Sequence record: OQ032511.1
DNA: 64,000 nucleotides
Strand: one strand, 5' to 3'
Source of the DNA: Acinetobacter phage nACB1
The notes beneath the pieces were generated by a model, which saw nothing but the letters and a program-made list of their open reading frames with translations, did not search any database and had not been told where the DNA came from. The translations under genes and the position numbers were made by a program. Positions within the stretch are counted from its first letter, which is position 1, and every line of letters starts with the position of its first letter. This document shows, one piece after another, positions 1,078 through 50,058 of the stretch.

Positions 1078-4000
1078 ATGGCAGATTATAAATCACTCCA
1101 AGTGTCAGACGCATTATCCCGAATTACTAATCAATTGAAACCACAAGTTACTTATGGTTCCTTAGGTAGTTCTGTATACGGTCGTAACACTAATACGCCT
1201 GATGCTATTGCTGCTGATCAACAAGCTATTCAACAAGGTCAGCAATACTATAACTCTATCTATGGTAAGACTGGTTCTGACTATGTACAAGATGCAGGTG
1301 TAGCTTTAGCTAAAGGTGTTGTATCAGTTCCACAAGCAGCTGCAGGTATTGTTGACTTGCTTGATGCAGGTGCTCAATTCGCTACAGGTCAAGATGTTCA
1401 AGGTGGACGCTTCTCTAAGAACTTAGCAGATGTAGGTGTAGACTTTGCTACCACTCAAGACATTATGTCTGGTTGGTTTAGTGAAGGTACTCAACGTCAG
1501 ATGCAAGAATTAGCTGCACTTCCTGGAATGTCTACAGAACAATCCTTAGGGCAGAACTTAAATTCATTAGGTTCTACTTTAGGTTATGTTGCAGATAATC
1601 CATCTATTGCTCTTAACACTATTATCCAATCATTGCCTTCTATTGCTGCAGGTGGTGTTGTAGGTCGTGGTGCTGCAGCATTAGGTGCAAGAGGAGCTGC
1701 AGGTGCTATTGGTGAAGGTACAATAATGTCAGGCCAAGCACAGGCTAATATGGAACGTAATGCAGAAGGTTATACAACTGGTCAACAAGCATTAGGTGCA
1801 TTAGGTATTGGTGTATTGGGTGGCTTAGTAGGTCAAGCAGGTAATCGTATTGCTGCTACCCGTGGAGCTGCTGATATTGATCAGGTAGCTGCAGGTGTTG
1901 GTAGTCAAGCTGCAAACCAAGGCTTCAAATCATTAACTGTAGGTACTGCAACAGAGGCAGCAGAAGAAGCTGCACAGTCTGCATTAGAAAATGTTATTAC
2001 TAACGTTAGCTCAGGTAAAGATGCAATCCAAGGATTAAACCAAGACTTAGTATTAGGTACTCTTGCAGGTGCAGGAATGGGTGCTGCTGTTAATGCTAAA
2101 TCTTCTATTGGTACTGCTGCTTTGGAAGCTGTACAGAATGCAGCTAACAAACAAATTGAACGTGCTAAGGAGAAGATTAGTCGTGAAGCTCCTGAACAAA
2201 CTGATACCCCTACTGAACAGTTTACAGACCCAAGTTCTCCTTCATATAACCCTTCTGCTGCTTTGGTTAGAGAAGCCAAGAAGTTAACTGAAGCTACTAC
2301 ACCTGAAGAACAGTTAGATGTACGTAATAGCTTTAATTACATTATGGAAGAGCAAGAAGCTTATCTTGGTGGTTTAATTGAGACACGCGATGCAGTACAG
2401 AACATTGATAACTTACGTCAGTCAATTGTTAATGCTGATGCTGCTGTAGAAAGATTTGCAGAGTCTGACCCTGCTAAGGCAGAACAGATTGCTGCTATCT
2501 CAGCTAACTTAAAAGAACAAGTTGCTGTAGCTGAACAGTTCATTGGTAATGAGCAAACTCTTGATGCTCATATTGCTGAGGTGGAAACTAAGGTACAAGA
2601 AGCACGTGATATTCATACTCGTTATGACAGCTTAATGCAGCGTGCTACAACTAATGATGAAACTATGGATACTCAAATCTTTGGTGCTCCTCAGAAGTTC
2701 ACACCAGAACAGATTGAGAAAGCTATCAATGATCCTAAAGTACCAGAAGCTAGTAAACCTGCTTTACGTGCTTTAGCTGATGCTGTAGTTGCACAGAATG
2801 CTGTTAAGAATATTGATGCTGTAAACCAACAGATTACTGGTAAACAGTATGACTCTAATTACCGTAGTACTCCTCAATACTTAGCTCAGTTTACTCGTGC
2901 TATTAAGCAAGGTAATACAGCTCAACAAGTTAACCTTATGCGTGAGATTGGTGCGTTTGAACAATCACATGTGCAGAAAGCTGAGATAGTACAACAAGGT
3001 TTAGAGTTAGCTAGTTCAGGACAGCCAGTACAGATTATTCGTAATCAAGATGGTTCATGGGCATTCAATCAAGGTGAGTGGTTATCTCGTACTGCTGCTA
3101 AAAAGAATGGTGCTATTACTATTGCTTCACCTAAGCAGATTGAAGCTGTAACTAAAACAAGTGAATACATGCAAGCAGAAGCTCAAGCTATTACTGCTAC
3201 ACGTAATGCAATGGAGCAACTAGATGTACTCAACAACCCTAATGGTTCAGTCGTTAGACCAAGCAATGTGGCAACACAAAGTACACCTGAAACCCAAGAA
3301 GTACCAACGCAACAAGCAACTGATTTCCAAGCTGCTATTGATGAACTCAACTCACTAGAGCGAGACAACTATGACTATCAACCTCAGCGACGTGTTGAAG
3401 ACCCACGCGAATCTTTATCACAGCCTAGCTTTGATGGAGCTATCAATGCAGAAAGCCAAGTTCCTACAGGAACACAATCTACCAGTGGAACCATGTCTAG
3501 TGGAGATACCTCCCAAGTACAAACCCCAACGAACACTGAAGGCACTACTCCAGTAGCGAAGGCTGAACGTGTTGCAAGTCGTAGCGTAAGCGAAGACGTA
3601 GCAACGGAAGTTCAGACAAGCACAGAAGCAGCAACCCAAGCAACCAACGAAGAAACTACTGAAGAAGTGGTTACTCCTGAAGTTAAGAAAGAAGCTGAGC
3701 CACAGGATATTAATACTGTAGAGAAAGCAGATAAGAATCCTGCTCGTACTGCTGAACGTGCTAAAGAGCCTAAGAAACGTAATCTTGTTATTGATGGTTT
3801 TAATCAACGTGATACTGTGCTTAATCGTAATGAGAACTTTGTTAAGCGTTTTATGAATCGTAGTAACATTGCTCCAGTTGTAGAATCTATTACTGGTAAA
3901 GCTCCTACACCTAAACAAGAGCAAGCTCTTAAAGACTTTACTAACTTTGCTAATTACTTTGATAGTAAGTTAGACATTATTGGTAGTAAGCAAGAAGACT

Positions 4001-7000
4001 TCCGCTTCCAAGACTTCAATCAATTCTTACTAGTAGATGGTAAGTTACCTGACAATGTTAAGACTGCAGTATCTGCTGCTATGTATTCTTGGATTGCTGA
4101 GAATGGTTCTAAGACTCTCAATACTGAGAGAGATGTTGCAGGGTTATTATTACTCAATGACATTGATACATTACCTACAACTGTGTTTAACGCATTCACA
4201 GGTATTGGTGATCACCAGTCAGTAGTAACAGGTAGCTTAGGACAGAAAGCACTTGAAGCTCTTGGTTTAAAAGTTGTGTCTGACGTTGACCCTGCTCGTA
4301 AGCAAAAACTTGAACAAGCTCTTGGTACTCTTGCAGCTGTAGCACTTACACAGAATGGTTACTTAGAACATACTGCAATGTCTGTTGCTGAGTTTGAGCT
4401 ACATCAAGCATATGCACAGAATGCTAATGAAGGTTCTACCTTTGGTGATCAAACATTCAAAGGTGGTAAGACTATTAACTTCTTGGTTCCTAAAGCAGGT
4501 AAGAAAGTAGATCAAGTAATCAAATCAGCTGCTGAAACTCAAGGTATTGTTCAATCTTTATTTGGTGTACAGCGTGATATTAAATTACCTTCTCTTGAGC
4601 CTGTAACAAGCACACCACAGTCTTTTAACCGTATGGGTTCTGAACTACCTTCGTACACTAAAGATATGTTAGAAGCTGCTCAGAGCAATGGTTATAAGAT
4701 GTCTATCCCTGCTATGCAGTTTATGGACAATGTTAAGCAAGATGACTTACTTGAGTTGTTTGGTTTTATTAAGCCTAATGCTGATGGTGTTTCATTTGAT
4801 GGTATGCATAAGAAGTTCTGGAAATCTCAATTAGCTTCTAATGAAGCTGTAGAGCGTGCTGTAGCAATCATTAAAGAACAACGTGCTAACTTAGGTGATG
4901 ACTCTAAAGAGTTCTTTTTCGAGCACACCAGTTGGACTAACACGCGTTCAGGTTATGATTCCGCATTTAACTTACAAGCTAATAAGATGCACCGTGCTGT
5001 AGCAGGTATGTCAGCTCATGTAGTAGAAGTAGGAATTGAAGCACCTATTAAGAATGGTGAAACTACTAAGTTTGGTGAGTTCTTAATGGCTGTAGCAATG
5101 GGTGCAGAAGGTGCATCTGATGTTATGGGTATTCAAACTGTAGATAAAGTTTCTGCTGAAACATTCTTACCTAAGTTCCAAGAGTACTTAGCACAAGATT
5201 ATGTACAAGCAGGTATCGAGTCTATGGCAGCTGCTATAGAGACTAAACCAACTAAACAAGATATGGACAACATCAAACGTGTGGTAACTGAGTTTGATAT
5301 GGGGCCTATGTCTGTACGTGCATTACAAGCGTTAGCTCAAATGCACATAGCTGAACGTGATGGTCAACGTACCTTTACTTCAGATATTGGTTTTGAATCT
5401 GATGGTGTAACTAATGGCCCAGTCATTACTAACGTAGCTTTAAATACTGCTGATGCACAGATGTTAGAAGCAGGTGGTATCTTTACTAGCCGTGCTAAAT
5501 CAAATGTACCTACTAACAAGGAGCAAGGTAACGAAGACATCTATGAGCAATTAGGTGGTGTAATGCAAGCTGAATGGACTGCTTATAAAAAAGCTGTTAA
5601 AGGTGGTGCATTAGATTCTGCACTTGGATTAGATGTTATCTACTCTGCCTTTGGTAAACGTAAAGGTGCTAAACCAATCGTAACTACATCTAACTATGGT
5701 GCAGGCATTGCTTCAATTAAACGTGCTAATGCGCGTGAGGTTTTGAATGCCTTCTATACTGGCTTAGAGTCTGCAGGTAAGAAAGGTGATATTGGTGCAG
5801 CACAAGACCTTATTAATGCTGTTAATAAAACCATTAAGTACTCTAACTTTAAACAGAAGTTATCTACTCCATTAGCTGTAGCTAAAGGTGATGTTATGGA
5901 GTTTCTATTAACTCCTGAACAAGAAGCTGCATTATTCTTTGCTGCTGATCTCCAACATGGAGAAGCAATCAAGGAGACCCTTAGTAAAGCTATGGCAGGC
6001 TTTAATGAAGTACGCGATAACTTAACTGAACAAGCAGTTACTGGATTTAAAATCTATGAGTTGATTAGACAGAATGCTATTAATGAAGCTCTTAAGAATA
6101 CTGATGGTGTACTTGTAGATGGTAAGGGTAAACGTCAAGAAGGGCTGACTGCTGATCAAATGAAAGCAGTACTTAAGTCTATAGAACGTTATACCCCATC
6201 TGTAGTTTCAGGTATGGGTAATCTATCTTCTAATAAGAAGAAATCATCTATTCCATTAATGAAGCAAGATACTGTATGGGATGGTTCTGCTATGTCAGAA
6301 CAACAGTTTAAGTTCTTAGGTTCTTGGCAACAGTCAGGTACTAAAGAGTTTTCTGTACGATCTGCTATTAAGCGTGATGCTGTATCTGATCCTGGTGTAT
6401 CTGGTTTAGCTCTTATCATTCAATCTATTGATGCCATGATTGCTCATACTACTATCGGTAAGATGCCTACTCAAAACTACCATGATGCTAACGCATCTGC
6501 TGTAGGTCAGGGTAAAGCTATGGCTAAGATTCAGAATGAAGCATTCGTTGATGGTGTTATGCATACACATGTTAATCGTGAGTTTGCACGTGCCTTAATG
6601 AATCCTTTGACTTTAGTTTTAGATAACAAAGCATTCTACACAGCTAATAAAGATGAGATTAATGATGCTATGAAAGGTATCTTTATGTCTCAGAAAGTAG
6701 CTACTGCCTACGAGCGTGATTTAGCTAAGCTTACTGGAATGCTTAAATGGGTGAACGTAAATCAGTATGGTACTCAAGGCGGTCATTTCCAAATGACTAA
6801 TGCTAAGCGTAAAGAGATTCTTGATGAGATTGCTCAGCTTAAGAAAGACTATGCTAAAGATGCGGCATTAGCTAAACGTATTGATGAGATTGTTGAATCA
6901 GGTTCTGAGCCTCAAACTGTAGAAGAACACTTACGTCAGAACATTATCATGACTGGTAAAGAAGTGGTTCCATTGCTTCAAGCAGAACTTAAACAGTTCC

Positions 7001-10000
7001 AAGGTAAAGAAGGTCAGGTAGGTAAGTTCTCTCAGTTCTATGACAGCATATTAGATTTAGTAACTAAGCAAATGCCTAGTGACTTAGAGATTAATTACTT
7101 CTCTGATCTTGAAGCGCCTGAAAATGTTAATGGCTTAAAAGAAGCAGTGGATAACAATAACCCTGCTTGGTTCACTACAGGTAAGGACGGTAAACCACAG
7201 ATTAATATTCTACGTTCTGATGCTCCTATTCGTGCACAGGTTCTCGTACATGAGCTTGTACACGCTATCACTGTAGATTCTATTAGTCAGGTTCGTAAAG
7301 ACCCTACAGCGCACGCTAAGGCTGCAGAATCACTAGCTAAGCTTGATGCGCTCTATGAAGATATTAAAGCGAAAGTAAATGCTGATCCTAATGCTACTGA
7401 CTTACAGAAGTATGCAGTTAAGAATGTAGAAGAGTTTATTGCTACTGGTTTCTCATATCCTGAGTTTGTTGATTACCTAGATAGCCAATTGGCTCCTAAA
7501 GCAGCTCGTGGTAAGAATCGTATTGTTACTGCATTACGTTCATTTGTAGATAGTATCCTAGGTGTGCTTGAGAGCTTCACAGGGCGTAAGTATTCAGCTA
7601 AAGATGCAACTGCACTAGAAGCATTAATCATTGACTCTACAGAGTTCTTAGGACGTGCTCCTACACAAACCACTGGTACTCAAACAAGTATCTTTGGTGC
7701 ACCACAGCAAGCGCGTAATACTGTAGATGGTTACACTGCTTATGAAGTATTTAGTACTTTACCTAAACATGCTAACCCACAATTCCAAGCTCATTTGAAT
7801 CAGATGATGCGTCAGGTTGCTGACACAATCTATTCAGGTTTAGATCAAAAACTTATTGATAACAATGATGGTGCTTGGTCTATTGAGAAAGCATGGGAAG
7901 AATACACAACTGCAGGTAATGCTGAGACTACCGAGACTGCTGTAACTGCAGGCTTCCGTATGACTGAGCAAGAAGCATTTGCTGTTGAGTCTATCTATGC
8001 AGCTATGGTTCATGGTTTAAAAGATAAGTCTATGACTCAGGTGTATGCTGAAATGAATAAGGCATATAACTCTGCTAAAGCTAGACTTAAACCAGAGAAC
8101 TTCTATCAAGGTGATTGGGCTACTGCTACTCGTCAAGATAAAGCTGATGCTCAAGATATGTATGATTACTTCTTTAAACTAGGCCCAACTAATAAGCAGC
8201 ACTTAGCTCGCTTTATCTCTATGGCTCTAGGTTCTGAGCAAGTAAATAGTATGCTTGGTTTTGCTGTTAAAGATACTTCTACAGCTCCTTCAAATACATT
8301 TGAAAACATTGTTGAGAAAGCTAATACCTTACTTGATTTTGTTGGTGGTGTATTAACTAACAGTAACTCAGCTCAGAATATTAATAACCGTGTTGGTCTT
8401 CTTGCAAAAGAGTTAGCACGTATTGATATGAAGAATCGTGAACATGCTGTTGGTCGTGTTGAAGCACAGTTAGAAGCTATTGCTGATTACACAGATGGTG
8501 TATCTAAGAAGTTACGTGAACGTGTTGTTGAATTTGCAGATAAAGATGCGATTGCTAATAACCGTAATACTTATGTACGTCTTGCAAGTAACACTACGCG
8601 CTTAGCTGCTAAAGGTGATTTGTGGACTGTACTCGATACATTGAAAGAAGCTAACAACATTGATAATCCAAATAGTACCTTAGGTATGATGGGTGAAATT
8701 ATTAATGAAGCTGCCAACAATGACTCTACTAAAAACCATGTAGAGAAGATGATGCGTATCACTAAGTTAAATAACCAAATGAAGGAGAACATTCGTCATA
8801 CCACTACTAAGAATGTTATGAGCACATTTGAAGATAATGGTCAGTATCTTACTAAAGATCATAAGGCTGCTCTTACTACTATGTTACGTTCTGATGTACA
8901 GGTGTTGAGTACTACATACTCTACTAAAGAGATTGCTCAGTTATACACTGATGGTAAGTTCTTACAGAATGAAACTGCTGCAGTAGTTAATCAGCTTAAA
9001 GCTTTAGGTGGAGATCAAGTAATGATTAACCGTGCTAAGCAATTAGCTAAGTATATGCTTACTGGTAATTCATCTATTGGTTTAGCTAAGAATGCTCAGC
9101 TTATTGTTTCTGGTTTTAACTCTGGTGAAGTAGTTGATCTGACTGACCCACGTGTTGACTTGGTAGATAAACTTGCAACTATGTATGCAATTGAATACAC
9201 AGATAAAGGTACTCGTAATCGCCTTGGTGAAGTGTTTAAGCGTGAGCTTAAAAACAAAACTAATGGTGTAGATACTTCTATCAAGTTCCATCATGAGCTT
9301 TCTAAAGAAGCACGTAATAAGTTATTCGTTGATAATGCTACGTCTGTTGTTAAAGGTTTTGTTCCTGAGATCACTAACCCTAACAAAGAAGTTCGTATTG
9401 CTACTAACGATACAGAAGCTCGTCTATATAAAGAGCAGTACTATCGTGAAGTTAAGTCTATGGTTAAAGACAAGTCTGATAAGACTGGTGCTACTCCTCG
9501 TTTATTTATTACTGATGAAGCTAACGTACAGCGTTTAGTATCAGGTGCTGTAGAGATTGTTTCTACTAACCGTAAAGGTACTGGTGTAAACATGGATGCT
9601 AAAGAATTTACTTATGCTGTTAATAGCGTACGTATTCCTAACAGTCCATTATATAACCCTATGCTTGATCAAGATGTTTATATGGTTCCTAACTACAATA
9701 CTCAGAATGAGGTAGTTGGTTTCTCTTATGAAATGTCAGGTAATAACCGAGATAGTTTATTAGAGCGTAACAATGATTTCTCTGAGTTACTTGGTGCTTA
9801 TGCTGCAACTAACTTTAACAAGGTTACTGTTCCTGATCAGAACAATAAAGTTATTGATGCTGCTTACCAAGACTACAAAGATAACTTTGTTAATAACCCA
9901 CGTGCTTACATTACTGTAGGGCCTGGTGCTACTAACCCTGCATTGGCAGAGACTTGGGCTATGTTGCCAGAAGATACACGTAGATACATTGAATCTAAGT

Positions 10001-11076
10001 TTGGCCCAGATGGTATGGTAATTCGTAATGATGTTTACTTAACTATGTTTGGCTACCGTAAATATTCTTTAAACCAAGCATTCGATAAGATGCCTGAAGC
10101 ACGTAACATGTTTGAGTCTATCTACACAGATGTTATGAATACTCTGTTTGGTGGTAAGGCTCGCTTACGTGGTGTACAAGGTGAACGTGCATGGCAAGAA
10201 GCTGTAAGTACTATGAAAGATATTATTGTTATTCGTAACGTTAAGACTCTTATTGGTAACACTATCTCTAACGCTTTATTGTTATCTGCTCATGGTGTGA
10301 GCTTTACTGATATTGCTAAAGACACTGCTACATCTATTCGTGCAGGATTACAGTACCGTCGTGACATGGCTAACTTGTTATCTATTCGTCAGAAGCAGAA
10401 AGCAGGTGTAGGTGATTTCAATAAACTAGAGCAAGAAGCTTTACGTATTGAAGATTCAATGAGTCGTAACCCATTAGCTGACTTTATCAATGAAGGTATG
10501 ATGCCTACTATTGTTGAAGACTTAGACCCATCTAATGACCACTACTCATACAAGTCTAAGTTACAAGAGCGTATTGATGGTTTAACTACTGATGTACCTA
10601 AGTCTGTGAAGACTGCAGCTAAATGGTTAATGGTATCTCCTGATACTCCGTTGTACCAGTTCTTGAATAATGCTACTCAGTTCTCTGACTTTAGTTCTAA
10701 GTATGTGTTGTATAAACACTACACTACTAAAGCTAAAGAAAAGCTAGGACATGAAGAAGCTATTCAGATTGCTCAGGATAACTTCATTAACTATGACATT
10801 CCTACTTCACGTGGTTTACAGTATCTGAATGATATGGGTGTGGTAATGTTTACTAAATATAACTTACGTATTCAGAAAGCATTATTCCAATTGATGAAGA
10901 AGCGTCCTGCTTCTGTAATGGCTCAAGCCTTATTGATTGGTACTCTTACTAATATGGAAACTGCTATTGACCCTATTGTGTTTACACAGTTTGGTAATCC
11001 GCTACGTACTGGTGCATTTGGTTTACCAAGTGCTTTAGATGAACCTCTTCCTATTAAGATGCTTACTGGACTGTAA
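1078..11076 (+). CDS. virion-encapsidated RNA polymerase (N4 gp50-like vRNAP), 3332 aa
   Basis: Giant ORF; central region has T7-like single-subunit RNAP motifs: FESDGVTNG (A-like), KRKGAKPIVTTSNYGAG (motif B, R/K..YG), NYHDANA (motif C-like HD); size and operon position match N4 vRNAP. Confidence 0.75.
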   Translation: MADYKSLQVSDALSRITNQLKPQVTYGSLGSSVYGRNTNTPDAIAADQQAIQQGQQYYNSIYGKTGSDYVQDAGVALAKGVVSVPQAAAGIVDLLDAGAQFATGQDVQGGRFSKNLADVGVDFATTQDIMSGWFSEGTQRQMQELAALPGMSTEQSLGQNLNSLGSTLGYVADNPSIALNTIIQSLPSIAAGGVVGRGAAALGARGAAGAIGEGTIMSGQAQANMERNAEGYTTGQQALGALGIGVLGGLVGQAGNRIAATRGAADIDQVAAGVGSQAANQGFKSLTVGTATEAAEEAAQSALENVITNVSSGKDAIQGLNQDLVLGTLAGAGMGAAVNAKSSIGTAALEAVQNAANKQIERAKEKISREAPEQTDTPTEQFTDPSSPSYNPSAALVREAKKLTEATTPEEQLDVRNSFNYIMEEQEAYLGGLIETRDAVQNIDNLRQSIVNADAAVERFAESDPAKAEQIAAISANLKEQVAVAEQFIGNEQTLDAHIAEVETKVQEARDIHTRYDSLMQRATTNDETMDTQIFGAPQKFTPEQIEKAINDPKVPEASKPALRALADAVVAQNAVKNIDAVNQQITGKQYDSNYRSTPQYLAQFTRAIKQGNTAQQVNLMREIGAFEQSHVQKAEIVQQGLELASSGQPVQIIRNQDGSWAFNQGEWLSRTAAKKNGAITIASPKQIEAVTKTSEYMQAEAQAITATRNAMEQLDVLNNPNGSVVRPSNVATQSTPETQEVPTQQATDFQAAIDELNSLERDNYDYQPQRRVEDPRESLSQPSFDGAINAESQVPTGTQSTSGTMSSGDTSQVQTPTNTEGTTPVAKAERVASRSVSEDVATEVQTSTEAATQATNEETTEEVVTPEVKKEAEPQDINTVEKADKNPARTAERAKEPKKRNLVIDGFNQRDTVLNRNENFVKRFMNRSNIAPVVESITGKAPTPKQEQALKDFTNFANYFDSKLDIIGSKQEDFRFQDFNQFLLVDGKLPDNVKTAVSAAMYSWIAENGSKTLNTERDVAGLLLLNDIDTLPTTVFNAFTGIGDHQSVVTGSLGQKALEALGLKVVSDVDPARKQKLEQALGTLAAVALTQNGYLEHTAMSVAEFELHQAYAQNANEGSTFGDQTFKGGKTINFLVPKAGKKVDQVIKSAAETQGIVQSLFGVQRDIKLPSLEPVTSTPQSFNRMGSELPSYTKDMLEAAQSNGYKMSIPAMQFMDNVKQDDLLELFGFIKPNADGVSFDGMHKKFWKSQLASNEAVERAVAIIKEQRANLGDDSKEFFFEHTSWTNTRSGYDSAFNLQANKMHRAVAGMSAHVVEVGIEAPIKNGETTKFGEFLMAVAMGAEGASDVMGIQTVDKVSAETFLPKFQEYLAQDYVQAGIESMAAAIETKPTKQDMDNIKRVVTEFDMGPMSVRALQALAQMHIAERDGQRTFTSDIGFESDGVTNGPVITNVALNTADAQMLEAGGIFTSRAKSNVPTNKEQGNEDIYEQLGGVMQAEWTAYKKAVKGGALDSALGLDVIYSAFGKRKGAKPIVTTSNYGAGIASIKRANAREVLNAFYTGLESAGKKGDIGAAQDLINAVNKTIKYSNFKQKLSTPLAVAKGDVMEFLLTPEQEAALFFAADLQHGEAIKETLSKAMAGFNEVRDNLTEQAVTGFKIYELIRQNAINEALKNTDGVLVDGKGKRQEGLTADQMKAVLKSIERYTPSVVSGMGNLSSNKKKSSIPLMKQDTVWDGSAMSEQQFKFLGSWQQSGTKEFSVRSAIKRDAVSDPGVSGLALIIQSIDAMIAHTTIGKMPTQNYHDANASAVGQGKAMAKIQNEAFVDGVMHTHVNREFARALMNPLTLVLDNKAFYTANKDEINDAMKGIFMSQKVATAYERDLAKLTGMLKWVNVNQYGTQGGHFQMTNAKRKEILDEIAQLKKDYAKDAALAKRIDEIVESGSEPQTVEEHLRQNIIMTGKEVVPLLQAELKQFQGKEGQVGKFSQFYDSILDLVTKQMPSDLEINYFSDLEAPENVNGLKEAVDNNNPAWFTTGKDGKPQINILRSDAPIRAQVLVHELVHAITVDSISQVRKDPTAHAKAAESLAKLDALYEDIKAKVNADPNATDLQKYAVKNVEEFIATGFSYPEFVDYLDSQLAPKAARGKNRIVTALRSFVDSILGVLESFTGRKYSAKDATALEALIIDSTEFLGRAPTQTTGTQTSIFGAPQQARNTVDGYTAYEVFSTLPKHANPQFQAHLNQMMRQVADTIYSGLDQKLIDNNDGAWSIEKAWEEYTTAGNAETTETAVTAGFRMTEQEAFAVESIYAAMVHGLKDKSMTQVYAEMNKAYNSAKARLKPENFYQGDWATATRQDKADAQDMYDYFFKLGPTNKQHLARFISMALGSEQVNSMLGFAVKDTSTAPSNTFENIVEKANTLLDFVGGVLTNSNSAQNINNRVGLLAKELARIDMKNREHAVGRVEAQLEAIADYTDGVSKKLRERVVEFADKDAIANNRNTYVRLASNTTRLAAKGDLWTVLDTLKEANNIDNPNSTLGMMGEIINEAANNDSTKNHVEKMMRITKLNNQMKENIRHTTTKNVMSTFEDNGQYLTKDHKAALTTMLRSDVQVLSTTYSTKEIAQLYTDGKFLQNETAAVVNQLKALGGDQVMINRAKQLAKYMLTGNSSIGLAKNAQLIVSGFNSGEVVDLTDPRVDLVDKLATMYAIEYTDKGTRNRLGEVFKRELKNKTNGVDTSIKFHHELSKEARNKLFVDNATSVVKGFVPEITNPNKEVRIATNDTEARLYKEQYYREVKSMVKDKSDKTGATPRLFITDEANVQRLVSGAVEIVSTNRKGTGVNMDAKEFTYAVNSVRIPNSPLYNPMLDQDVYMVPNYNTQNEVVGFSYEMSGNNRDSLLERNNDFSELLGAYAATNFNKVTVPDQNNKVIDAAYQDYKDNFVNNPRAYITVGPGATNPALAETWAMLPEDTRRYIESKFGPDGMVIRNDVYLTMFGYRKYSLNQAFDKMPEARNMFESIYTDVMNTLFGGKARLRGVQGERAWQEAVSTMKDIIVIRNVKTLIGNTISNALLLSAHGVSFTDIAKDTATSIRAGLQYRRDMANLLSIRQKQKAGVGDFNKLEQEALRIEDSMSRNPLADFINEGMMPTIVEDLDPSNDHYSYKSKLQERIDGLTTDVPKSVKTAAKWLMVSPDTPLYQFLNNATQFSDFSSKYVLYKHYTTKAKEKLGHEEAIQIAQDNFINYDIPTSRGLQYLNDMGVVMFTKYNLRIQKALFQLMKKRPASVMAQALLIGTLTNMETAIDPIVFTQFGNPLRTGAFGLPSALDEPLPIKMLTGL

Positions 11077-24349: not shown

Positions 24350-24398
24350 TATTCGTAACATCACTTCATTGACAGCACTTGCTCAAGCATTAGCTGAT
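24289..24398 (+). repeat. perfect tandem duplication 2 x 55 bp
   Basis: aggtgatattcgtaacatcacttcattgacagcacttgctcaagcattagctgat occurs at 24289..24343 and 24344..24398 with no mismatch; 55 mod 3 = 1. Confidence 0.9.
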
Positions 24399-30300: not shown

Positions 30301-31838
30301 ATATTTATATGATGGGTGCATCTGGTACAGCTTCTAACGTTGCAGCTACCTCTATTGAGTTTAGTGAACCATTCGGTACTAGCTTCGTAACTATGACTGT
30401 TAAATTTAATGGTAATGGTTTTGGCTTCAGAACTAATGCATGGCTCATGATGTCTAACAATGGTGCTGCATCAGGTACTTGGTTTGAGTTTGCAGAACTT
30501 ATGGTACAGGATGGAAATACTGCAACTGCATGGTCTGACTCTTACTTAGACGTACCTGAGATTGATTTAACTGAGTATGCAAAAGCATCTGCATTAAGCT
30601 CATTAGATACTAAAGTAACTCAGATTGATGGACGTGTAACAAGCCAAGCTACTTCTATCACTCAGCTACAATCTAGTGTTGGTGACAATACATCTAAGCT
30701 TCAAGTACAAGGTGAAGTGATTGATGGATTGAAAGCTTCATACTTTGTTAAGACTGATGTGAATGGTTTGGTAGCAGGGTTTGGTTTATATAATGATGGT
30801 ACTAGTTCTGCTTTTGGTGTTAATGCTGATTACTTCTATATTGGTAAAGCATCAGGTGGTAAGAAACCATTCATTGTAACTACTTCACCTCAAACTATTG
30901 ATGGTGTTACTTATCCCGTAGGTACATGGATTCATACTGCATTGATTGCTAATGCCACTATTGGTACAGCACATATTGCAGATGCTTCTATTACCAATGC
31001 TAAGATCAATAGTCTTGATGCAGCTAAGATTACTACTGGTACTCTTGATGCAGCACGTATTAAAGTTGGTGCAGCTACTCAGTATGAGATTGGATATGAT
31101 CCAATTACTAAAGCTCGTACATTCGTAGCACAACCAGTTACTCCATACCGTGCAGGTGATATTTGGAAGAATGGTACTACTACAGCTATCTGTACTGTTA
31201 CTCGTTTGTCTGGTGCATACGTTGCAGCTGATTGGGGTAAGACTGGTGATGTAACTTCTGAGAATACTGCAGCTGATACATCTAAAGTTGGCGGTGTCGC
31301 TGCAGCTACTGTAAACCAAAATATTACTAATGCACAGACTGCGGCTACTAATGCTGCTACATTGGCAGGTAATAAAGGTGAGGTTATCTATGGAACTGCA
31401 CAGCCTGCTGCTGACAAGCGTTTAGCACAAAACCTATGGATTGATACCACTAGTAATGCTAATACGCCTAAGCGTTGGAATGGTAGCGCATGGGTAGCGG
31501 TTACAGATAAGGCAGCTACTGATGCTAAGGCTGCAGCTGATGCAGCAGATGCTAAAGCGGTAGCAGCACAAGTAACAGCTAACTCAGCTAACAACCAAGT
31601 TAATGCTTGGAAGTTCACTGGTACAACTGAGATTGATGGTGGTAAGATTCGCGCTGATACAGTAACTGCTGTACAAATGAATGTAGCTGAGCTTAGTGCT
31701 ATCACAGGTACACTTGGTACTTTAGTTACTTATAAAGACCCTGCTCAACCTAATAAGGCTCGTATGGTTATGCAAGGTAGTTTGATTACAGTGTACGATG
31801 ATAATAATGTTTTACGTGTTCGTATGGGACTTTGGTAA
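24369..31838 (+). CDS. giant fibre/tail appendage-like protein (2489 aa; ~2569 aa if the duplication is collapsed)
   Basis: ~20 copies of a ~28-aa module (TSN.NAITSLQGRVT..EGKI/TLSTKADASA) alternating with four beta-rich lectin-like domains each ending in the fibre-protein motif M/LQRGNKAT / MVQDGNTATAWSD; TTG start in ORF track is an artefact of the frameshift. Confidence 0.6.
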   Translation: MTALAQALADYRVKTDLEINNERIARQQLGVDLNTRVDDFVSTFDHKFVMVYQTIQTYQDETNGKLTLFDARIRKYEEMLQDITTDSIQITMDNGEINMGAWTILSQAREWDLEILANFKDYKTQTDKDIDEALKDIQDKLPIEQDIIDKAIEALSDAQIIKDLDAKIDGNIADIDTVHQQLIAEVNNRQNEMIDYSQTIANEMQKNQNALVTMVQTEAEARIDALQRESAIRQQELVNEAAERSAEITERIKDIEAGTGADLTAVNQRIDEANLYIESVKDTLDTERDERLADIATLDDGLTKEIQSRKDGDTSITTALNNYKASNDVAMANFRDEVTVVAESNAATVTKVNALDASLKTTNTKLDQTTATAGTALDKATLALTETGALAQRVTQTEANITQINKDVATKANASTVTLLESRVETIDGEVKASTKAITKLTSDLTTVQGELDQKVDASVLDSYSTTVQTDKAIADRVQEYDANLYIGGQNIWSVVDQPVTNEAGVATKTVVNQGEEHYRIIINSFASNRIVTRLDNALVDRGFIFKIGDDFTVSFEVRASRNAPASGIYYYFGGSGSFTSNLPLTTEWVRYVFPLKATGTGVGSATQMFGTSFFSTSGWAVDDWVEFRHVQMQRGKKATEFQKATAKVQQGITTNATAITGIKAEVTNHEGRITSNSNSITALTNTVSQTNKDLATKADSKAVADLKSQVDVMDGKITSNSQSIVILNNDVTTIKGDMQNMATTSALQALDSKVSVIDGKTTSNTNAITSLQGSVNTINSTLATKADTSAVNALSTTVTQQGTQIIANSNQLTNLSASISMSMPEAKVTGTLDGINLFTPYINNSNINLVDEATAVSGKVIRIGDNSGNDNIAGISNAYVAIDPNKLYRVKYRVRRVIGDGTIYLSVVTTNADKTRNVMHTNSETALTDISNSLYYVGNAAPALGTWLEGEYFFKGKSAGTSGGTGTIASPRTFPAKAAYIRLGILPNFTVKAGQQDIDYIILEDYDAMSLGDANGTAITNLGTRVTNNEGAIDVHSSQLTNLTGRISTVEGGLTTKADSSALSALETKVTAVDGKVSTNTNAITSLQGRVTSVEGTLSTKADASALANYYTKTQTDSAVAGGINAYNTSLSVGGDNLWSLEGSTNSNEFGVTQKVLQDSTIDAHRFTVSSFTTNIARIRNQDMIPNGYDGQLAVGEQYTLTFKIRASRAAAADYYAYVGETGFPNVTTPLSLTEDWQTITSTFTLRATVSTSIRQMFCVTLRSTNGWAVNDWYDVKEIMLQRGNKATTYVKAAAKTKQLIDANASAITNTQASVTNLDGKLTTLSTSVTTLTGRVSTVENGLSTKADVSAFNALDARVVQQGKDIETVSASVTTVNTRIDNLAISTNNVLLNSYGERTSAAPTQREYLMYERSVALKDFYNENLDKFITLSFEIKVPVAGPVQVYTSNNSAHQFSTGITITEADVWQKFTLKLVPRPHPTTPENVAGSTLEFYGTYGTGRIPTIRKAMMVAGGVAAAWEPSPRDTQASFEAQSSAISTLDSQTKALDGRIITNASNITTLQGRVTTAEGKITSNTNAISGLETKITETNGKIDAQANSVTRLQSRVDNNAGAGLSQDYLCLDYDSWYNHSNLTNSIALAPYFNQTLTDGPLGAKGFAATGGTFFMYNKTPLPTNKTYRVQFWAKRSSDTTGTAYITILRLKPGEALNAQWYTSIALSAAELPRNNTWTYIDKIVNITGGTTTYPLMYLGFSLNNGASAGTTAAQGFKVTEILNVGDTTGLATSDALTSLTTRVTTAEGKIDTQAGQITSLNTTVAGKANASAVTSLEARVTTAEGNITSLTTSSTNLTNRMTAAEGKITTNTNNLTTMTNKVTEIDGKVTAQATQINKVESTLAGQAIGSTNLHPATISATTWEPYSTSTVAKVTGGFKTDLVRVTKTGGSVGGVATVAAQRKINVRTGTPIIVTAKVRGDAIPNYIYMMGASGTASNVAATSIEFSEPFGTSFVTMTVKFNGNGFGFRTNAWLMMSNNGAASGTWFEFAELMVQDGNTATAWSDSYLDVPEIDLTEYAKASALSSLDTKVTQIDGRVTSQATSITQLQSSVGDNTSKLQVQGEVIDGLKASYFVKTDVNGLVAGFGLYNDGTSSAFGVNADYFYIGKASGGKKPFIVTTSPQTIDGVTYPVGTWIHTALIANATIGTAHIADASITNAKINSLDAAKITTGTLDAARIKVGAATQYEIGYDPITKARTFVAQPVTPYRAGDIWKNGTTTAICTVTRLSGAYVAADWGKTGDVTSENTAADTSKVGGVAAATVNQNITNAQTAATNAATLAGNKGEVIYGTAQPAADKRLAQNLWIDTTSNANTPKRWNGSAWVAVTDKAATDAKAAADAADAKAVAAQVTANSANNQVNAWKFTGTTEIDGGKIRADTVTAVQMNVAELSAITGTLGTLVTYKDPAQPNKARMVMQGSLITVYDDNNVLRVRMGLW

Positions 31839-38187: not shown

Positions 38188-38511
38188 ATGCCAGTTGATC
38201 AAGATGGTAACATCACAACTACCCCTTCAGTTAATGTCAAGACATGGCATGACGTTGTAACCACTGATGGTAAAGACGGTATTGCTCTTCAAGTTGGTGG
38301 TATGGCTCGTACCCCTCAAGACACTGGTGGTGGTCTCGAATTAGGTGCAGGCACTGCTTATGTACTCCCTGCTGCAACAACTGCTGCAATTGGTGGTGTT
38401 AAGAAAACCCCTACTATTGCTGCTTTAGCAGGTGGTGCAGATGCTGCAGCTATCGTAACAACTGTCAATGATTTGATTGCCAAGTTAAAGACAGCGGGTA
38501 TTGTTTCCTAA
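38188..38511 (+). CDS. small Gly/Ala/Thr-rich protein (107 aa), lone plus-strand gene inside minus-strand block
   Basis: MPVDQDGNITTTPSVNV...; own promoter-like element and terminator. Confidence 0.45.
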   Translation: MPVDQDGNITTTPSVNVKTWHDVVTTDGKDGIALQVGGMARTPQDTGGGLELGAGTAYVLPAATTAAIGGVKKTPTIAALAGGADAAAIVTTVNDLIAKLKTAGIVS

Positions 38512-38527
38512 TAGTACTCAATAAGAT

Positions 38528-38556
38528 AAGGCAGCCTAGGCTGCCTTTTTCTTTTC
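38528..38556. terminator. convergent terminator; DNAP stop codon lies in its loop
   Basis: aggcagc-ctag-gctgcct-tttttctttt. Confidence 0.6.
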
Positions 38557-39167
38557 ATGATATTTCTTCATTGCAGCATCTACTACATCACAGAGTTCAA
38601 CTTTAGTAGCTGTTCTTGGTAATGTAATACCATGAGACCAGTTAGGATAGAACAAGTCTAAGTCACCTCCAAGTTTCACTTCGTCGTGAGCAATCTCAGG
38701 TAAGTCTTGCCATTCCATCTCTTTGGTGAGATGTCTATTAACCCATTCAACAACTTCAAGTTCGTTACTAATAACGAGATAAATTGCATCATGAATTAAT
38801 GCTACTGGCATAATCTTAAGTCTGTAAGGTGATGCCCAAACTTTCTCCATGAATGCTACTGCAGCTCGGTTATTCAATAAGCCATATGATTGGCCCATAG
38901 CATTACCTGCTGTACGCATCTCTGCTTTAGCTTCATTAGAAGTAAACTTATTACCTAAGATGGTTTTCTTGAGTAATGGTGTACGTAACTTCAAACCAAA
39001 GGCTAAAGTAACATACCCTAATTTACAGGCTTCTTCTTCAATACGTTTCATAATGAAGTCATCACTGACTACATAAAGCTTGTGATACATCTCCTCAATA
39101 GCTTTCGCTACCTCAGGTGCAAAACCACAGTTCTTAACTAACGTAGACCATGTGCCCATATATGTTA
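38536..39167 (-). CDS. DNA polymerase (family A) exon 2
   Basis: Frame open upstream of annotated Met to 39189; begins (L)TYMGTW completing motif B (..FA|LTYMG vs Pol I ..FG-LIYG); contains motif C-like IHDAIY. Confidence 0.65.
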
Positions 39168-40010
39168 CATTTATGTTCAGGATAGTTCGTTAGGCTACCC
39201 CCGCTTTGTTCAAGCTGCTGTATGTCACCATACAGATCAGACTATATCATCATCCTTTCGGATGCCTTGCGCTTCCACTCACTTGAGTGTACGAGCTATC
39301 GCTCTAGTCGTTGAACCTTACTTGCATTCACTACTGCTAATACTTTCCTATTACGCTCTGCTCTTTGTTGCTTTAAAGCTTCATCAAGTTGAGCTTCTAA
39401 TCCTACCTCTTTAGCTATCTTACGAAGCTTTGTAGATAAGAATGGTACTTTATAAGGGACACGTTCAGCTAATGCTGCGTATGTCTCACCACCAAGCACA
39501 CTATGCAAGCAATCAATAAATTCTTGCTTAGTAAGTCTGTTGGTGTAAGCACGTAAACCTGCTTGTACCGCATGTTGTGAGTTTCCTACGCTATCGACCC
39601 ACTCTAAGTTAGAGTAATGGTTGTTAAGCTTATTACCATCCTTATGATTTACTTCAGGTAAACCGTGTGGATTACTCACAAATGCTTGTGCTACAAGCCT
39701 GTGTACATAGAAAGTTTCTGGTTTGTTATTCTTCCAAAGTTGTACAGTTAAATACTCTACATCCTTATGAGGATACAAACCTAAGTAATCTTCTTTGTGA
39801 TTACTGTATATGAGTCCTGATTCAGTTACTGAGTAGTTCTCATAATTTTTAATAGCTAGTGTGTTCATAAGCATCTCCTATATTTGCTATGGTGTATCTT
39901 AATAGCAAAAGTAGGTGAATGCAAGTCTTGGCTGCTGATTGTCTCATTGAGATGTCCCAGCAATTCACAAGGTTTTCATTACGTATTTCTACGTAATGGC
40001 GCAAACATTT
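39168..40010 (-). mobile_element. group I-like intron (~843 nt) with HNH homing endonuclease, splitting DNAP motif B
   Basis: Exon 1 ...KAPTFA then in-frame TAA; joining exon-1 terminal T (40011) to TA of exon 2 (39167) gives TTA=Leu and restores KAPTFALTYMG; 5' exon ends in U, intron ends in G; a P1 pairing (exon gcgu / intron gcgc) is possible. Confidence 0.6.
39296..39874 (-). CDS. intron-encoded HNH homing endonuclease (NUMOD4-like + HNH_3)
   Basis: YSVTESGLIYS N-terminal motif; VNHKDGNKLNNHYSNLEW HNH core. Confidence 0.65.
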   Translation of the reverse strand: MLMNTLAIKNYENYSVTESGLIYSNHKEDYLGLYPHKDVEYLTVQLWKNNKPETFYVHRLVAQAFVSNPHGLPEVNHKDGNKLNNHYSNLEWVDSVGNSQHAVQAGLRAYTNRLTKQEFIDCLHSVLGGETYAALAERVPYKVPFLSTKLRKIAKEVGLEAQLDEALKQQRAERNRKVLAVVNASKVQRLER

Positions 40011-42003
40011 ACGCAAATGTAGGTGCTTTACTGTCCTGACGCTCAGTTGGATACTTATCTTCAATACTGTTGATAGAGTCAACAGAAGTAGGATCAATGT
40101 CTGGCATACGATCACCAAAGTAAGCATAAGCACGTAGACAGTGACCATCATAACCATCTGTATAAACCTTGAGTTTCTCAGGGTCTTTAGTGGTTAATGC
40201 TGAGATACGATCTTCTAATGATGCAAAGTCTGCACCACAGAAAATACTGCCATAAGCTGCTGCAAAGCATGACTTAATTAGCTTACCTAAATCTCCGCCT
40301 GCAGGCAGGTTTTGAAGATTAGGATCACTGGATGAAAGTCTGCCTGACTTAGTTCCTCCAATATTGAATGAACCATGTAGGTAAGCCATACCATCAGCTT
40401 TAAGCCATGCATCTTCAAACGCAGGGATAAACCCAGTTAGAATCTTCACAAGCTTGGTGTACTTATGGAGAGCTTCCATGACCTCTAATTTCTCAGGGTC
40501 ATTTGTATGCTTACGTAAAGCCTTAATGACTTTACCTCCAGTTGCTCGCTCACCTGAATCAGTCCACTCAATGACTGGCATTTCCATAACGTCGTATAAC
40601 AGTACAGCTAGTTGCTGACCGCTATTAAAGTTCAATGGTTCATTAAACTCATGACGCTCTACAACCTTCTTCTTTAAAGAAGCTTGTTTGTCTTTCCATG
40701 CCTTAGTCTGAAGCTTGTCAGTAGCTTCTTGGACATACGCATTACATTCCATGATCTGAACATAACTGTCTGATTCAGCTTGTAGCTGTGCTTTAACTTC
40801 CTGAACACGTTCAGGTATCAAAGGTAAACCATGACATTCAATCTGAATAATCATCCGTAAAGATGGGATCATCAAATTGTTATAAATATCTAGTTGTTCC
40901 TCAGCTACCATAATTGGATAGTAAGTCTCATACACATAGTTTGTACTAAGTACATCTACTAAGTTGTATCGTAAGATTTGTTCAGCAGGGATACGACGAA
41001 TGTCTTTAATGTCATCTTCTGCCCAGTTACCTGCAAATGGTTGTGCAAGTACTTTAAGCCCATACAGCGTTTGAGCTGTCTGGTTTAAACTGAGATATGC
41101 AATGATCTTGGTATCATCAAAGCAACGTGTCAGAACTTTTAGTCCTGTTAACATACCTTCCCAATCAAGAGGATGTTTCATCCATAAAGAATGAATCAAA
41201 CACTTGAAGTCATATGAAGCATTATGAGCTATCAGCTTACCGCGATAACCTTCAAAGAACTTACGTAGCAATTCCTTAGTTTTAGTTGCTTCAGCGCGTA
41301 CGCCGTAGTAACCATCCTCAGGAACAATTGGCTGATACTCTACAAAGAAAGCACAGCCTGTATGTTTAGACTCTGCAAATGCAATAGTACCTAAACCTGC
41401 ATCACGTAGGTTCAACGAGAATGCTTCAATATCTACAGCTAATTGAGGTTGGTTTGACAAGAATGCCAATTCCTTTTTCAATGCAGATACTGAGTTGGGA
41501 TAACGCTCTTCATGGATAATGTCAGAGCCAATCTCTACATAGCTACCATGGTAATGAGTTGTTAAGGCTTGAAGACTGAGATCAATCTTCTCCTTTTGGT
41601 TTGGGTTATGAAACAATGCACCGTAACCTAATGAATAGATCACGTACATATCTTCAAACCCTGGGATACCACATTCACTGACATAACCTAAGTTAACGTC
41701 AGCTTTACGTTCTTTGGCTAAGACTTTGTAATAAGCAGAATCAGCTACAAATAAGTATTTGATACCTGCTCGTTTATAGTCATCTAACCAATCAGCAATA
41801 TATTCTTTAATGAGTGTTACAGGTGCTTTACCTGCACGTGTATAGTCTAAGCTCATCGCTACGATTTCTTCACGTGGGATACCTGCATCAACCATAGGCT
41901 GAACATAGTACTGAATTAATTGTTGCTCTTTAAAAGCAGATTCCTTGATGAGAATACCAATTTTTGGGGTAGTGTCCCCATCAACGAACTTTAGTGTCTT
42001 CAC
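40011..42003 (-). CDS. DNA polymerase (family A) exon 1: 3'-5' exonuclease + polymerase motif A, start of motif B
   Basis: Exo motif LAVDIEAFSLN; motif A GADFASLEDRISA (DYSQIELR-like); ends RQDSKAPTFA* inside motif B. Confidence 0.65.
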
Positions 42004-42521
42004 ATAGTTGCTCCTAAAAGTACTCGCATATCAAATTTAGTAAAGTACTGTTCGTACTCATCTTTGAATGCTTTAACATCATCAAGTGACATTAGTGGTT
42101 TAGATTCCATCTGGAAGAAGCCTGCTTCATTGATTGCTGCATGCATACACTCTGGAAGTAACTCCAATAAGTCTTCTGCATACTTTGCAATACGTATGGC
42201 GTGTGAAACCATGTTCTGACAGATACGCGCTTCTTCTGATAACTCTACTACAAACATTTGGTATGCATCATTAAACTCTTGTTTCAATGACTCATGTAGC
42301 TGCTGTACACCACTACGCAATACTGTGTCACCCTCTATAAAGTAGGTAACACCTTTGTACTTAAATTGCATCACACGGTTAGGCATTAGCTCACCATGTC
42401 GCTTACAGAACTCTGTATAAACTCGTTCCCAAGCTTTGTTAGCCTGACCAAACAGATCACGATTGATCTGATTGATTAAGCGTTGGTTTGATGCCATTAC
42501 GTGTGAACGTGAGAATGACAT
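42000..42521 (-). CDS. hypothetical protein (173 aa)
   Basis: ORF, ATGA-coupled to neighbours. Confidence 0.45.
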   Translation of the reverse strand: MSFSRSHVMASNQRLINQINRDLFGQANKAWERVYTEFCKRHGELMPNRVMQFKYKGVTYFIEGDTVLRSGVQQLHESLKQEFNDAYQMFVVELSEEARICQNMVSHAIRIAKYAEDLLELLPECMHAAINEAGFFQMESKPLMSLDDVKAFKDEYEQYFTKFDMRVLLGATM

Positions 42522-49815: not shown

Positions 49816-49892
49816 TGGTCAGTACGGTAGGACTCGAACCTACATATTCCAGCATCCAAGGCTGGGCGATTACCCTTTCTCGCAACGCACTG
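49816..49892 (-). tRNA. tRNA-Pro (anticodon UGG), CCA encoded
   Basis: Manual cloverleaf: acceptor cagtgcg/cgtactg, D-stem gcga/tcgc, anticodon stem ccagc/gctgg, loop cuUGGau, T-arm gtagg-ttcgagt-cctac. Confidence 0.65.
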
Positions 49893-49894
49893 AT

Positions 49895-49976
49895 TGGTGT
49901 AGCCACTTGGATTCGAACCAAGGTGTGATATAGCGGAGTTACAGTCCGCCCCCTTCGACCACTCGGGCATAACTAC
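49895..49976 (-). tRNA. tRNA-Tyr (anticodon GUA), 82 nt, CCA encoded
   Basis: Acceptor gtagtta/tggctac (two G-U), D-arm ccc-gagtggtcgaa-ggg as in bacterial tRNA-Tyr, anticodon stem gcgga/tccgc, loop cuGUAac, T-arm cttgg-ttcgaat-ccaag. Confidence 0.6.
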
Positions 49977-49980
49977 AATT

Positions 49981-50058
49981 TGGTTCCCAATCTCAGAATC
50001 GAACTGAGAGTCTCTTACTTACAAGGCAAGTGCTATAACCAACAACAGCTTCTTGGGA
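49981..50058 (-). tRNA. tRNA-Thr (anticodon UGU), CCA encoded
   Basis: Acceptor tcccaag/attggga (one mismatch), D-stem gctg/tagc, anticodon stem cttgc/gtaag, loop cuUGUaa, T-arm ctcag-ttcgatt-ctgag; position 8 is A. Confidence 0.5.

Follow-up and report, generated by a model that had tools for sequence, protein, structure and literature searches.

Group I introns of subgroup IA2 that carry HNH endonuclease genes are classical elements of the family A DNA polymerase genes of phages. In E. coli numbering, the described insertion sites are 674 (SPO1, SP82, Bastille and Pf-WMP3), 676 (phiL7) and 881 (PhiI and W31) (PMC3428280), and Bastillevirinae often have polymerase introns of this kind (PMC11878797). 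For the HNH-split polymerase of the Vibrio phages JA1 and VchO139-I, introns were suggested by Fouts et al. (2013; PMC3670811), and a td-gene intron was described for pVa5 (PMC5746245). Here, we analyzed a stretch of 64,000 nucleotides (nt) from Acinetobacter phage nACB1 (OQ032511.1; hereafter, the window), in which the N4-like DNA polymerase gene is interrupted by an 843-nt insert with an HNH homing endonuclease gene. Based on the sequence, it is very probable that the insert is a mobile self-splicing IA2 group I intron located after the first base of the Leu665 codon. The element itself is ordinary, and its site is new.

The interrupted DNA polymerase gene of nACB1

The phage nACB1 has been placed in Schitoviridae and is a viable lytic isolate (PMC10057805); the words "intron", "HNH", "homing" and "DNA polymerase" do not occur in the main text of that paper. 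The window includes the gene for the N4-type giant virion RNA polymerase (open reading frame (ORF) 1078..11076, 3332 amino acids (aa); match to phrog_2206, 1737 bits). The minus strand has a 664-codon ORF (42003..40012) that starts with GTG and ends with ...RQDSKAPTFA, followed by a TAA that straddles the 5′ junction (GCG T|AA). A second minus-strand ORF of 207 codons (39159..38536) opens with MGTWSTLVK. Three GenBank proteins of nACB1 correspond to this locus: WAW11597.1 ("DNA polymerase", 664 aa) is identical to the exon-1 protein, WAW11621.1 ("DNA polymerase", 207 aa) to the ATG-started part of exon 2, and WAW11627.1 ("HNH homing endonuclease", 190 aa) to the protein of the inner ORF read from the ATG at 39868.

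Based on Pfam annotation, the exon-1 ORF matches PF00476 (98.9 bits, model positions 8–203) and the 3′–5′ exonuclease family PF01612 (27.2 bits), and the exon-2 ORF matches model positions 225–360 of PF00476. Exon 1 (40011..42003, minus strand) consists of the 664 codons and T40011, the first base of the Leu665 codon, and spans the 3′–5′ exonuclease domain, motif A and motif B up to ...K659-APT-F663-A664. Exon 2 (38536..39167, minus strand) begins with the last two bases of Leu665, continues with T666-Y667-M-G and encodes the remainder of the fingers domain and the palm, including motif C, up to the TAG stop. The joined exons thus encode a family A polymerase with the PF00476 motifs A, B and C.

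When exon 1 (42003..40011) is joined to exon 2 (39167..38536), a 2625-nt ORF of 874 aa is obtained. The polymerase frame reopens 843 nt downstream of the exon-1 end, and T40011 together with TA at 39167–39166 gives TTA (Leu). The uninterrupted polymerase of another Acinetobacter phage, At2, contains the junction peptide RQDSKAPTFALTYMGTW (RQDSKAPTFA-L-TYMGTW) without any change, and the joined protein is collinear from end to end with the uninterrupted N4-like polymerases of At2 (78% identity), XC38 (75%) and Presley (51%). The 874-aa product would hold the peptide APTFALTYMGTW across the junction, and the expected spliced junction in the DNA sense is ...TTTGCGT|TAACATAT..., in a product 843 nt below the genomic length.

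The 90%-identity protein cluster to which the nACB1 polymerase belongs also includes 874-aa polymerases without interruption, encoded on contigs of about 77 kb, for example L121. The DNA of L121 reads ...CCTACCTTTGCTT|TAACGTATATGG..., where both exon ends of nACB1 abut with no gap and no overlap; around the site, this intronless target allele reads ...CCTACCTTTGCTTTAACGTATATGG.... Since the exon ends abut, the 843 nt are a clean insertion, which represents a presence/absence polymorphism among close phages.

Alignment with the Klenow fragment, for which we assume the usual offset of E. coli Pol I numbering, equates K659 with K758, F663 with F762 and Y667 with Y766. The break accordingly falls after the first base of the Leu764 codon of E. 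coli Pol I, in the O-helix of motif B. The intron starts with A40010 and ends with G39168 (omega-G), and the 5′ exon ends with U. The earlier note on this DNA had given the same exon and insert coordinates, the same Leu-codon junction, a position inside motif B of a family A polymerase and the same terminal U and G; the coordinates proved exact, and the alignments and the sequence bear out the rest.

At its 5′ end, the polymerase gene overlaps the preceding gene, which encodes a 173-aa protein: the GTG start and the upstream stop share ATGTGA (42000–42005). At the 3′ end, a perfect 16-nt palindrome, GGCAGCCTAGGCTGCC, has the TAG stop at its centre and precedes a T-rich run (38520–38545). The palindrome and the T-rich run are probably a terminator common to the polymerase gene and the convergent plus-strand gene ending at 38511.

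Structure and conservation of the intron

The group I assignment of the intron (39168..40010, minus strand) is supported by two half-matches to the Rfam model RF00028, by a minimum free energy (MFE) fold and by covariation. The 5′-half match (40020..39780, 30.5 bits) aligns well on P1–P6 and the 3′-half match (39516..39218, 41.0 bits) on J6/7–P9; in a scan of 3.7 kb, the E-values of the two were 2.8e-8 and 4e-5, and together they flank most of the ORF. For folding, intron positions 101–675 were replaced by a tetraloop, and the unconstrained MFE structure of this ORF-deleted RNA was calculated. It recovers P1, P2, P3, P4, P5, P6/P6a, P7.1, P7.2, P8, P9, P9.1 and P9.2, and does not recover the P7 pseudoknot.

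In P1 (39999..40014), the exon sequence GCGU (40014..40011) and the intron bases A1-A2 pair with the guide UUGCGC (40004..39999), and the wobble U40011·G40002 marks the 5′ splice site. The 3′-exon side of P10 (39162..39166) is AACAU, which pairs with the intron sequence AUGUU (40008..40004). P2 (39978..39997) is an 8-bp stem with a GAAA loop, in which 7/8 pairs show compensatory changes. The 5′ strand of P3, CCUUGUG (39972..39966), pairs with P3′, CGCAAGG (39271..39265), and is followed by the P4–P5 domain (39963..39933), where P4 is UGCUGG/UCAGCA and P5 is short. The 5′ strands of P6 and P6a occupy 39915..39932. P6a has 12 bp (ACUUGCAUUCAC/GUGAAUGCAAGU, 10/12 pairs compensatory) and closes across the whole ORF via 39331..39320, next to the 3′ strand of P6 (39317..39315). 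The 3′ half of the catalytic core (39240..39309) begins with the 5′ strand of P7, GACUA (39309..39305), whose partner is P7′, UAGUC (39244..39240). The hairpins P7.1 (39304..39293) and P7.2 (39289..39276) stand between P7 and P3′, and P8 (39264..39251) follows P3′. P9 (39235..39218) and P9.1 with P9.2 (within 39215..39175) complete the structure, and the 3′ tail ends with ...AAAUG at 39168. The helices P3, P6/P6a, P9, P9.1 and P9.2 are supported by both the MFE fold and the comparison of the seven introns. The last 36 nt of the ORF, codons and stop included, double as P6a′, P6′, J6/7, P7 and P7.1. Judged by helix layout, the presence of P7.1/P7.2 and P9.1/P9.2 is the architecture of subgroup IA2, as in introns of T4, SPO1 and T7-like phages; the 3′ core resembles those of T4 td, T4 nrdD and many other phage introns.

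Homologous introns were reached through the endonuclease protein, and all came from ENA, Logan and NCBI assemblies. The protein has 1130 homologues at E <= 1e-10; seven of them were looked up and led to metagenomic N4-like contigs. An intron at exactly the nACB1 site was found in six further lineages (L006, L009–L011, L012–L014, L015/L016, L017 and L020). The junctions in these homologues read ...ACNTTYGC(G/A)U|(A/U)AA... and ...G|UAACNUAU..., and the intron ends in G in all seven homologues.

To count pairs, the seven introns (the window and the six lineages) were freed of their ORF loops and aligned, and the window structure was projected onto the alignment. A standard pair is formed in 95.7% of the cells, compared with 31–41% in slid controls, and 46 of the 83 pairs are changed on both sides, compared with 6–9 in the slid controls; neither value was reached in 500 shuffles. 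All cells are paired in P1, P4, P7, P8 and P9. Compensatory pairs occur in every helix except the invariant P7 and P9.1, with at least one each in P3, P7.1, P7.2 and P8. All six pairs of P1 are formed in 7/7 introns, and the U·G at the splice site is kept in every one. P1 covaries with the exon: the exon GCAU of L012 pairs with the guide GUGC (GC -> AU), and intron base 1 and its partner change from A-U to U-A in three introns. At least 3 bp of P10, (U)AA(C), are kept in all seven homologues, as read from the sequences without statistical scoring. Given the two Rfam matches and the covariation, these sequence statements lie far beyond chance. The P1 pairing GCGU/GCGC of the earlier note and the P3–P9 core, whose absence would by that note have refuted the intron, were thereby recovered, the former with an exon-matched change in L012 and the latter complete and supported by covariation.

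Endonuclease, proposed homing and alternative explanations

The gene for the I-HmuI-like HNH homing endonuclease (39296..39874, minus strand) lies in the P6a loop. It encodes 192 aa from the first ATG (39874) or 190 aa from the second (39868). The second start is more likely, because its spacing from the ribosome-binding site AGGAG (39879..39875, 6 nt upstream) is normal and the first ATG directly abuts that site. The 5′ part of AGGAG is paired in a hairpin, CUAC.UUUUGCUAU...AUAGCAAA..UAG (39868–39914), which recurs in 5/7 introns. A ribosome-binding site held in a hairpin is also a feature of I-TevI regulation, and by this analogy the hairpin may limit endonuclease translation.

The protein matches Pfam HNH_3 (PF13392) with 28.4 bits against a cut-off of 24.8, phrog_59 with E = 1.7e-37 and the sequence of I-HmuI (PDB 1U3E) with E = 1.3e-10 over residues 7–106, including the motif NHKDGNKxNNxxxNLxW. 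Its HNH motif VNHKDGNKLNNHYSNLEW aligns to VDHKDGNKDNNLSTNLRW of I-HmuI. The AlphaFold model, built with 48 homologues, has a mean predicted local distance difference test score (pLDDT) of 88.5, and 1U3E was its only significant PDB match in Foldseek (E = 2.8e-9, root-mean-square deviation 1.9 Å, 39% identity, 109 aligned columns); the helical C-terminal (DNA-binding) half gave no significant PDB match by Foldseek. Of the NUMOD4/HNH_3 assignment made before, the HNH_3 part exceeds its cut-off. NUMOD4 (PF07463) reached 12.8 bits against a cut-off of 23.4 (E = 0.14) and is therefore not assigned firmly, although a precomputed PF07463 hit exists for many of the homologues.

The intron and the exons differ in their degree of conservation. 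Between the window and L006, the intron is 96.0% identical, against 83% for the 5′ exon and 73% for the 3′ exon. For L012, the respective values are 75%, 89% and 85%, and for L009 they are 77%, 70% and 53%. This mismatch indicates that the intron and its host gene have different histories and, considered alongside the variable occurrence of the intron within one 90% cluster, is what homing predicts. The intron is predicted to be mobile. Intron-plus and intron-minus alleles in one cluster, combined with the identity mismatch, provide a ready system for studying homing in Schitoviridae.

Based on the anatomy of the element, we suggest the following pathway for splicing and homing. Once the polymerase pre-mRNA has adopted the group I fold, P7 would bind an external guanosine, which would attack the phosphodiester after U40011, displayed as the U·G wobble in P1, and the freed 3′-OH of exon 1, held by P1 and P10, would then attack after the terminal G at 39168. 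Ligation of the exons would restore ...K-APT-F-A-L-T-Y-MG... and the 874-aa polymerase, and on unspliced RNA translation would stop at the UAA spanning the 5′ junction. The 190-aa endonuclease, translated from its own AGGAG, may nick or cut intronless alleles near the site in mixed infection, by analogy with I-HmuI, I-BasI and I-TslI, and recombinational repair would then copy the intron in. Accordingly read, the two "DNA polymerase" coding sequences and the HNH gene in the annotation of nACB1 would become one spliced 874-aa gene and an intron.

Several points weigh against a self-splicing intron here. Splicing and endonuclease activity are deduced from the sequence; neither half-match reaches the RF00028 gathering score of 50 bits; P10 has only 3–5 bp; P7 never varies and therefore has no covariation support; and the seven introns are mutually related, with the structure derived from one of them. 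The half-matches fall below the gathering score because the 579-nt ORF splits the model. The ORF-deleted core is collinear with ORF-free cores that pass the Rfam threshold, namely those of phiKZ gp72/73 (87.6 bits) and pYD6-A (88 bits). Taking the structure from one aligned intron inflates the percentage of paired cells and does not explain the compensatory counts relative to the slid controls. None of the seven introns deviates in the P7 strands and the flanking J8/7 bases (GACUA ... GAUAUAGUC), which phiKZ and pYD6-A also have. The low Rfam scores could also be a sign of a decayed ribozyme that no longer self-splices, being either dependent on a protein cofactor or part of a pseudogene offset by another polymerase, and some phage introns do splice poorly in vitro. 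This explanation is very unlikely: all core helices are intact, the pairing and the invariance of P7 and J8/7 hold across the seven introns, and no second polymerase gene was seen in the examined part of the window. Moreover, a working polymerase must be made, since nACB1 is a viable lytic isolate.

It is highly unlikely that the polymerase consists of two polypeptides of 664 and 207 aa, split by a free-standing endonuclease gene and assembling without RNA splicing, as T4 genes 39/60 and the split gene 43 of some T4-like phages might suggest. GenBank does list two "DNA polymerase" coding sequences and an HNH gene, exon 2 has an in-frame ATG (M of TYMGTW), and in related metagenomic phages, genes of this endonuclease family stand alone about 28 codons upstream, where no group I core could be detected. 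However, the break in nACB1 falls within a codon in the middle of the O-helix, between the equivalents of F762 and Y766, and the exon-2 ATG is not preceded by a Shine-Dalgarno sequence. A full group I core kept by compensatory changes in seven lineages would have no reason in a split gene, and the guide sequence is linked to the two exon ends by P1 and P10. It is extremely improbable that the insert arose as an artefact of assembly or as a chimera, or that it is an intein, a group II intron or some other element; nothing in favour of these readings was found. The same architecture is present in the independent assemblies L006, L009–L012, L015–L017 and L020, and the Rfam scan of the whole window returned only this intron, three tRNAs and one weak sRNA match, with no other intron family. 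An intein or any in-frame insertion was ruled out, the insert being out of frame and interrupted by stop codons when read in the frame of the exons. The original proposal for this locus, a group I intron with an HNH endonuclease, agrees with the Rfam half-matches, the covarying core and the HNH_3 match.

Two further features of the window were recorded. Three adjacent tRNA genes (49820–50058, minus strand; Rfam 42–54 bits) were found, and the nACB1 paper gives four tRNAs (PMC10057805). A 2489-aa ORF (24369–31838, plus strand) encodes a giant repetitive tail protein with repeated matches to tail, tail-fibre and baseplate-spike PHROG families, with up to 11 matched stretches per family.

Introns and coding gaps in related phages and comparison with known systems

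The relatives of nACB1 differ in the number of inserts. The L012 polymerase is about 90% identical to that of nACB1 (93% over residues 1–561 and 89.5% over residues 665–874), and its exons lie at 462–2144, 2839–3030, 3708–3860 and 4698–5327. They are separated by three HNH-containing inserts: one near residue 561, where the Klenow alignment places the classical SPO1/Bastille site, one near residue 617 and one at 664/665, the nACB1 site. L015 and L017 have two inserts each, and nACB1 has only the one at 664/665; the additional intron at or near the classical 674 site, which is carried by L012 and L015, is absent from nACB1. The N4-like polymerase gene thus stands out as an intron hotspot, and a single phage can have as many as three.

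The motif-B site (Leu764 codon) was not found in the published papers searched and is not among the sites 674, 676 and 881. Megablast and blastn searches with the intron against 50,697 phage records gave short core similarities only. A tblastn search with the 258 aa across the junction returned 475 records, 472 of which cover at least 80% of the query in one place, and 60/60 sampled rows were in a single piece. Therefore, no isolate in this 50,697-record collection appears to have an insert at the nACB1 site. The 3′-junction pattern CGAACTNNNNTGAACAN{2,5}TGTAACNTAT found nothing in IMG/VR, and the polymerase of the JA1-type phage JSF3 is unbroken across the motif-B region. The novelty implied by the earlier note, which was not aware of an intron in an N4-like polymerase, does not hold: the polymerase gene of pYD6-A already carries the annotation of a two-piece join with an HNH gene in between and has an Rfam group I match of 88 bits, and introns had already been suggested for JA1 and VchO139-I.

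In other N4-like contigs, a related HNH gene (45–61% identity) splits the polymerase at about residues 637–640 (among others, L018 3501–4097, L021 2406–2996 and L022 3001–3591). No group I core was detectable at these loci even at an Rfam E < 0.1, and we rejected the view that this upstream endonuclease is part of an intron. The N-terminal part of the polymerase ends with its own stop codon after a conserved tail of about 45 aa. The C-terminal part starts at a separate ATG (M-V/A-L-K-I...) that overlaps the endonuclease stop, and runs 47 codons to ...SKxPTFALT, followed by a stop codon; the polymerase frame resumes with Y(Q/A/G)GT beyond an out-of-frame gap of 5 nt, made up of this stop codon and 2 nt. 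The gap has the form ACN-[TA(A/G)CN]-TAT, as in ACG-[TAGCG]-TAT, ACG-[TAACA]-TAT and ACC-[TAGCC]-TAT. The Thr and Tyr codons of ...PTFALT|Y.GT border it exactly, and the coding sequence on both flanks is conserved; the gap is located 5 nt downstream of the position of the nACB1 intron insertion site. Gaps were located at ~4204–4208 in L018, ~3118–3122 in L021 and ~3713–3717 in L022 and L026, and also in L101–L108, L110, L112–L113 and L115–L120. At least 12 distinct gap loci, in polymerase genes of uncultured N4-like phages, were found by a pattern search in IMG/VR and metagenomes; the pattern fixed TA(A/G)C, and four cases found first by tblastn without a pattern already had it.

The endonuclease gene is directly upstream in 10 of the 11 gap loci examined. 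L108 has the gap in an otherwise contiguous polymerase gene with no adjacent endonuclease, and may be a case of "hit and run". Two contigs have a longer out-of-frame insert of 37–47 nt (L025, ~3701–3753; L028, ~3650–3695) with a strong G/C hairpin (CCCCCCCTAGTAAACTAGGGGGGGG; CCCCCTCACATTACATGAGGGGG in the complement), flanked by Thr codons (ACT...ACT; ACT...ACA) and resembling the coding gap of T4 gene 60. L024 has a single extra C (TTT-C-GCA).

Reassignment of the stop codon cannot repair a 5-nt shift, and no conserved in-frame start was found downstream of the gap in these loci; hence, some recoding seems to be required. Judging by the reading frames, the gap has the appearance of a +5 "stop-hop" or of some other programmed recoding. 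If peptidyl-tRNA-Thr hopped by +5 from ACN to (A/G)CN, the K-x3-F-x3-Y register would be restored exactly; the take-off and landing codons match at only 2/3 positions in most loci. A −1 or +2 frameshift, which would add 1–2 residues within the K-x3-F-x3-Y register, is possible and less likely than bypass. A split intein, with the tail C-Y-x-A-K-V-G... and the head MVLKI...HN, was rejected: the Cys is Ala in two loci, the +1 residue after ...HN is Leu, Val or Lys in most loci and not Cys, Ser or Thr, and the two fragments total only about 66 aa.

The T4 mobA/gene 60 cassette has a 50-nt gap after codon 46. Natural bypassing has otherwise been described in few systems, namely myovirus topoisomerase genes and Magnusiomyces mitochondria, with candidates in Streptomyces phages. 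The related loci parallel the T4 gene 39/mobA/gene 60 arrangement, whereas nACB1 itself has no such gap. From these arrangements, one might tentatively view motif B as the battleground of one I-HmuI-like endonuclease family, which would be carried either by an intron or free-standing beside a coding gap with bypass, the two being alternative means by which the carrier genome is protected; we regard this view as possible rather than probable. In the loci with a gap, the essential polymerase could then be produced only through ribosomal bypassing. If this were true, the related loci would add another natural family of mobA/gene-60-like cassettes, the second in all, and would provide the first short stop-hop in nature. 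Considering how few systems of natural translational bypassing are known, the motif-B gaps could then matter more than the intron.

The closest core sequence found was that of the intron in phiKZ gp72/73, which encodes an RNA polymerase subunit. A stretch of 43 nt (39923–39965, P4–P6) is 95% identical, and P7.2, P9, P9.1 and P9.2 are homologous, with compensatory changes. Unlike the nACB1 intron, that of phiKZ has no ORF (~230 nt) and resides in another host gene of a jumbo myovirus. T4 td with I-TevI shares with nACB1 the IA2 subgroup, an ORF looped from P6a and a similar 3′ core sequence, but its endonuclease is of the GIY-YIG type and its host gene encodes thymidylate synthase, in contrast to the HNH endonuclease and the polymerase of nACB1.

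Closer in host gene are the IA2 introns in the family A polymerases of SPO1, SP82 and Bastille (I-HmuI, I-HmuII and I-BasI) and of Pf-WMP3 (I-PfoP3I). The endonucleases of SPO1, SP82 and Bastille belong to the same family as that of nACB1 (1U3E 39%, phrog_59). SPO1-type introns differ in their site, 674 (PNLQNIP), and in their Gram-positive or cyanobacterial hosts. The introns described for PhiI and W31 are likewise IA2 introns with an HNH ORF in P6a, inserted at a catalytic motif of a family A polymerase in podoviruses of Gram-negative hosts. However, their site is 881, in the motif C region, versus 763/764 in nACB1, and these phages belong to another family. The Pseudoalteromonas phage pYD6-A (NC_020849) is also a member of Schitoviridae and has, in the orthologous gene, an HNH gene and a collinear group I core. 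Its intron interrupts motif A (...GADYSAL|), some 70 codons upstream of the nACB1 site, and its ORF is located 5′ of the core and not in P6a. In pYD6-A (L004; 1348–4984 and 7297 onward for the two genes), the ribonucleotide reductase alpha gene is annotated as a join as well. The Leu764-codon site in the O-helix thus adds to the sites 674, 676 and 881 and to the motif-A intron of pYD6-A.

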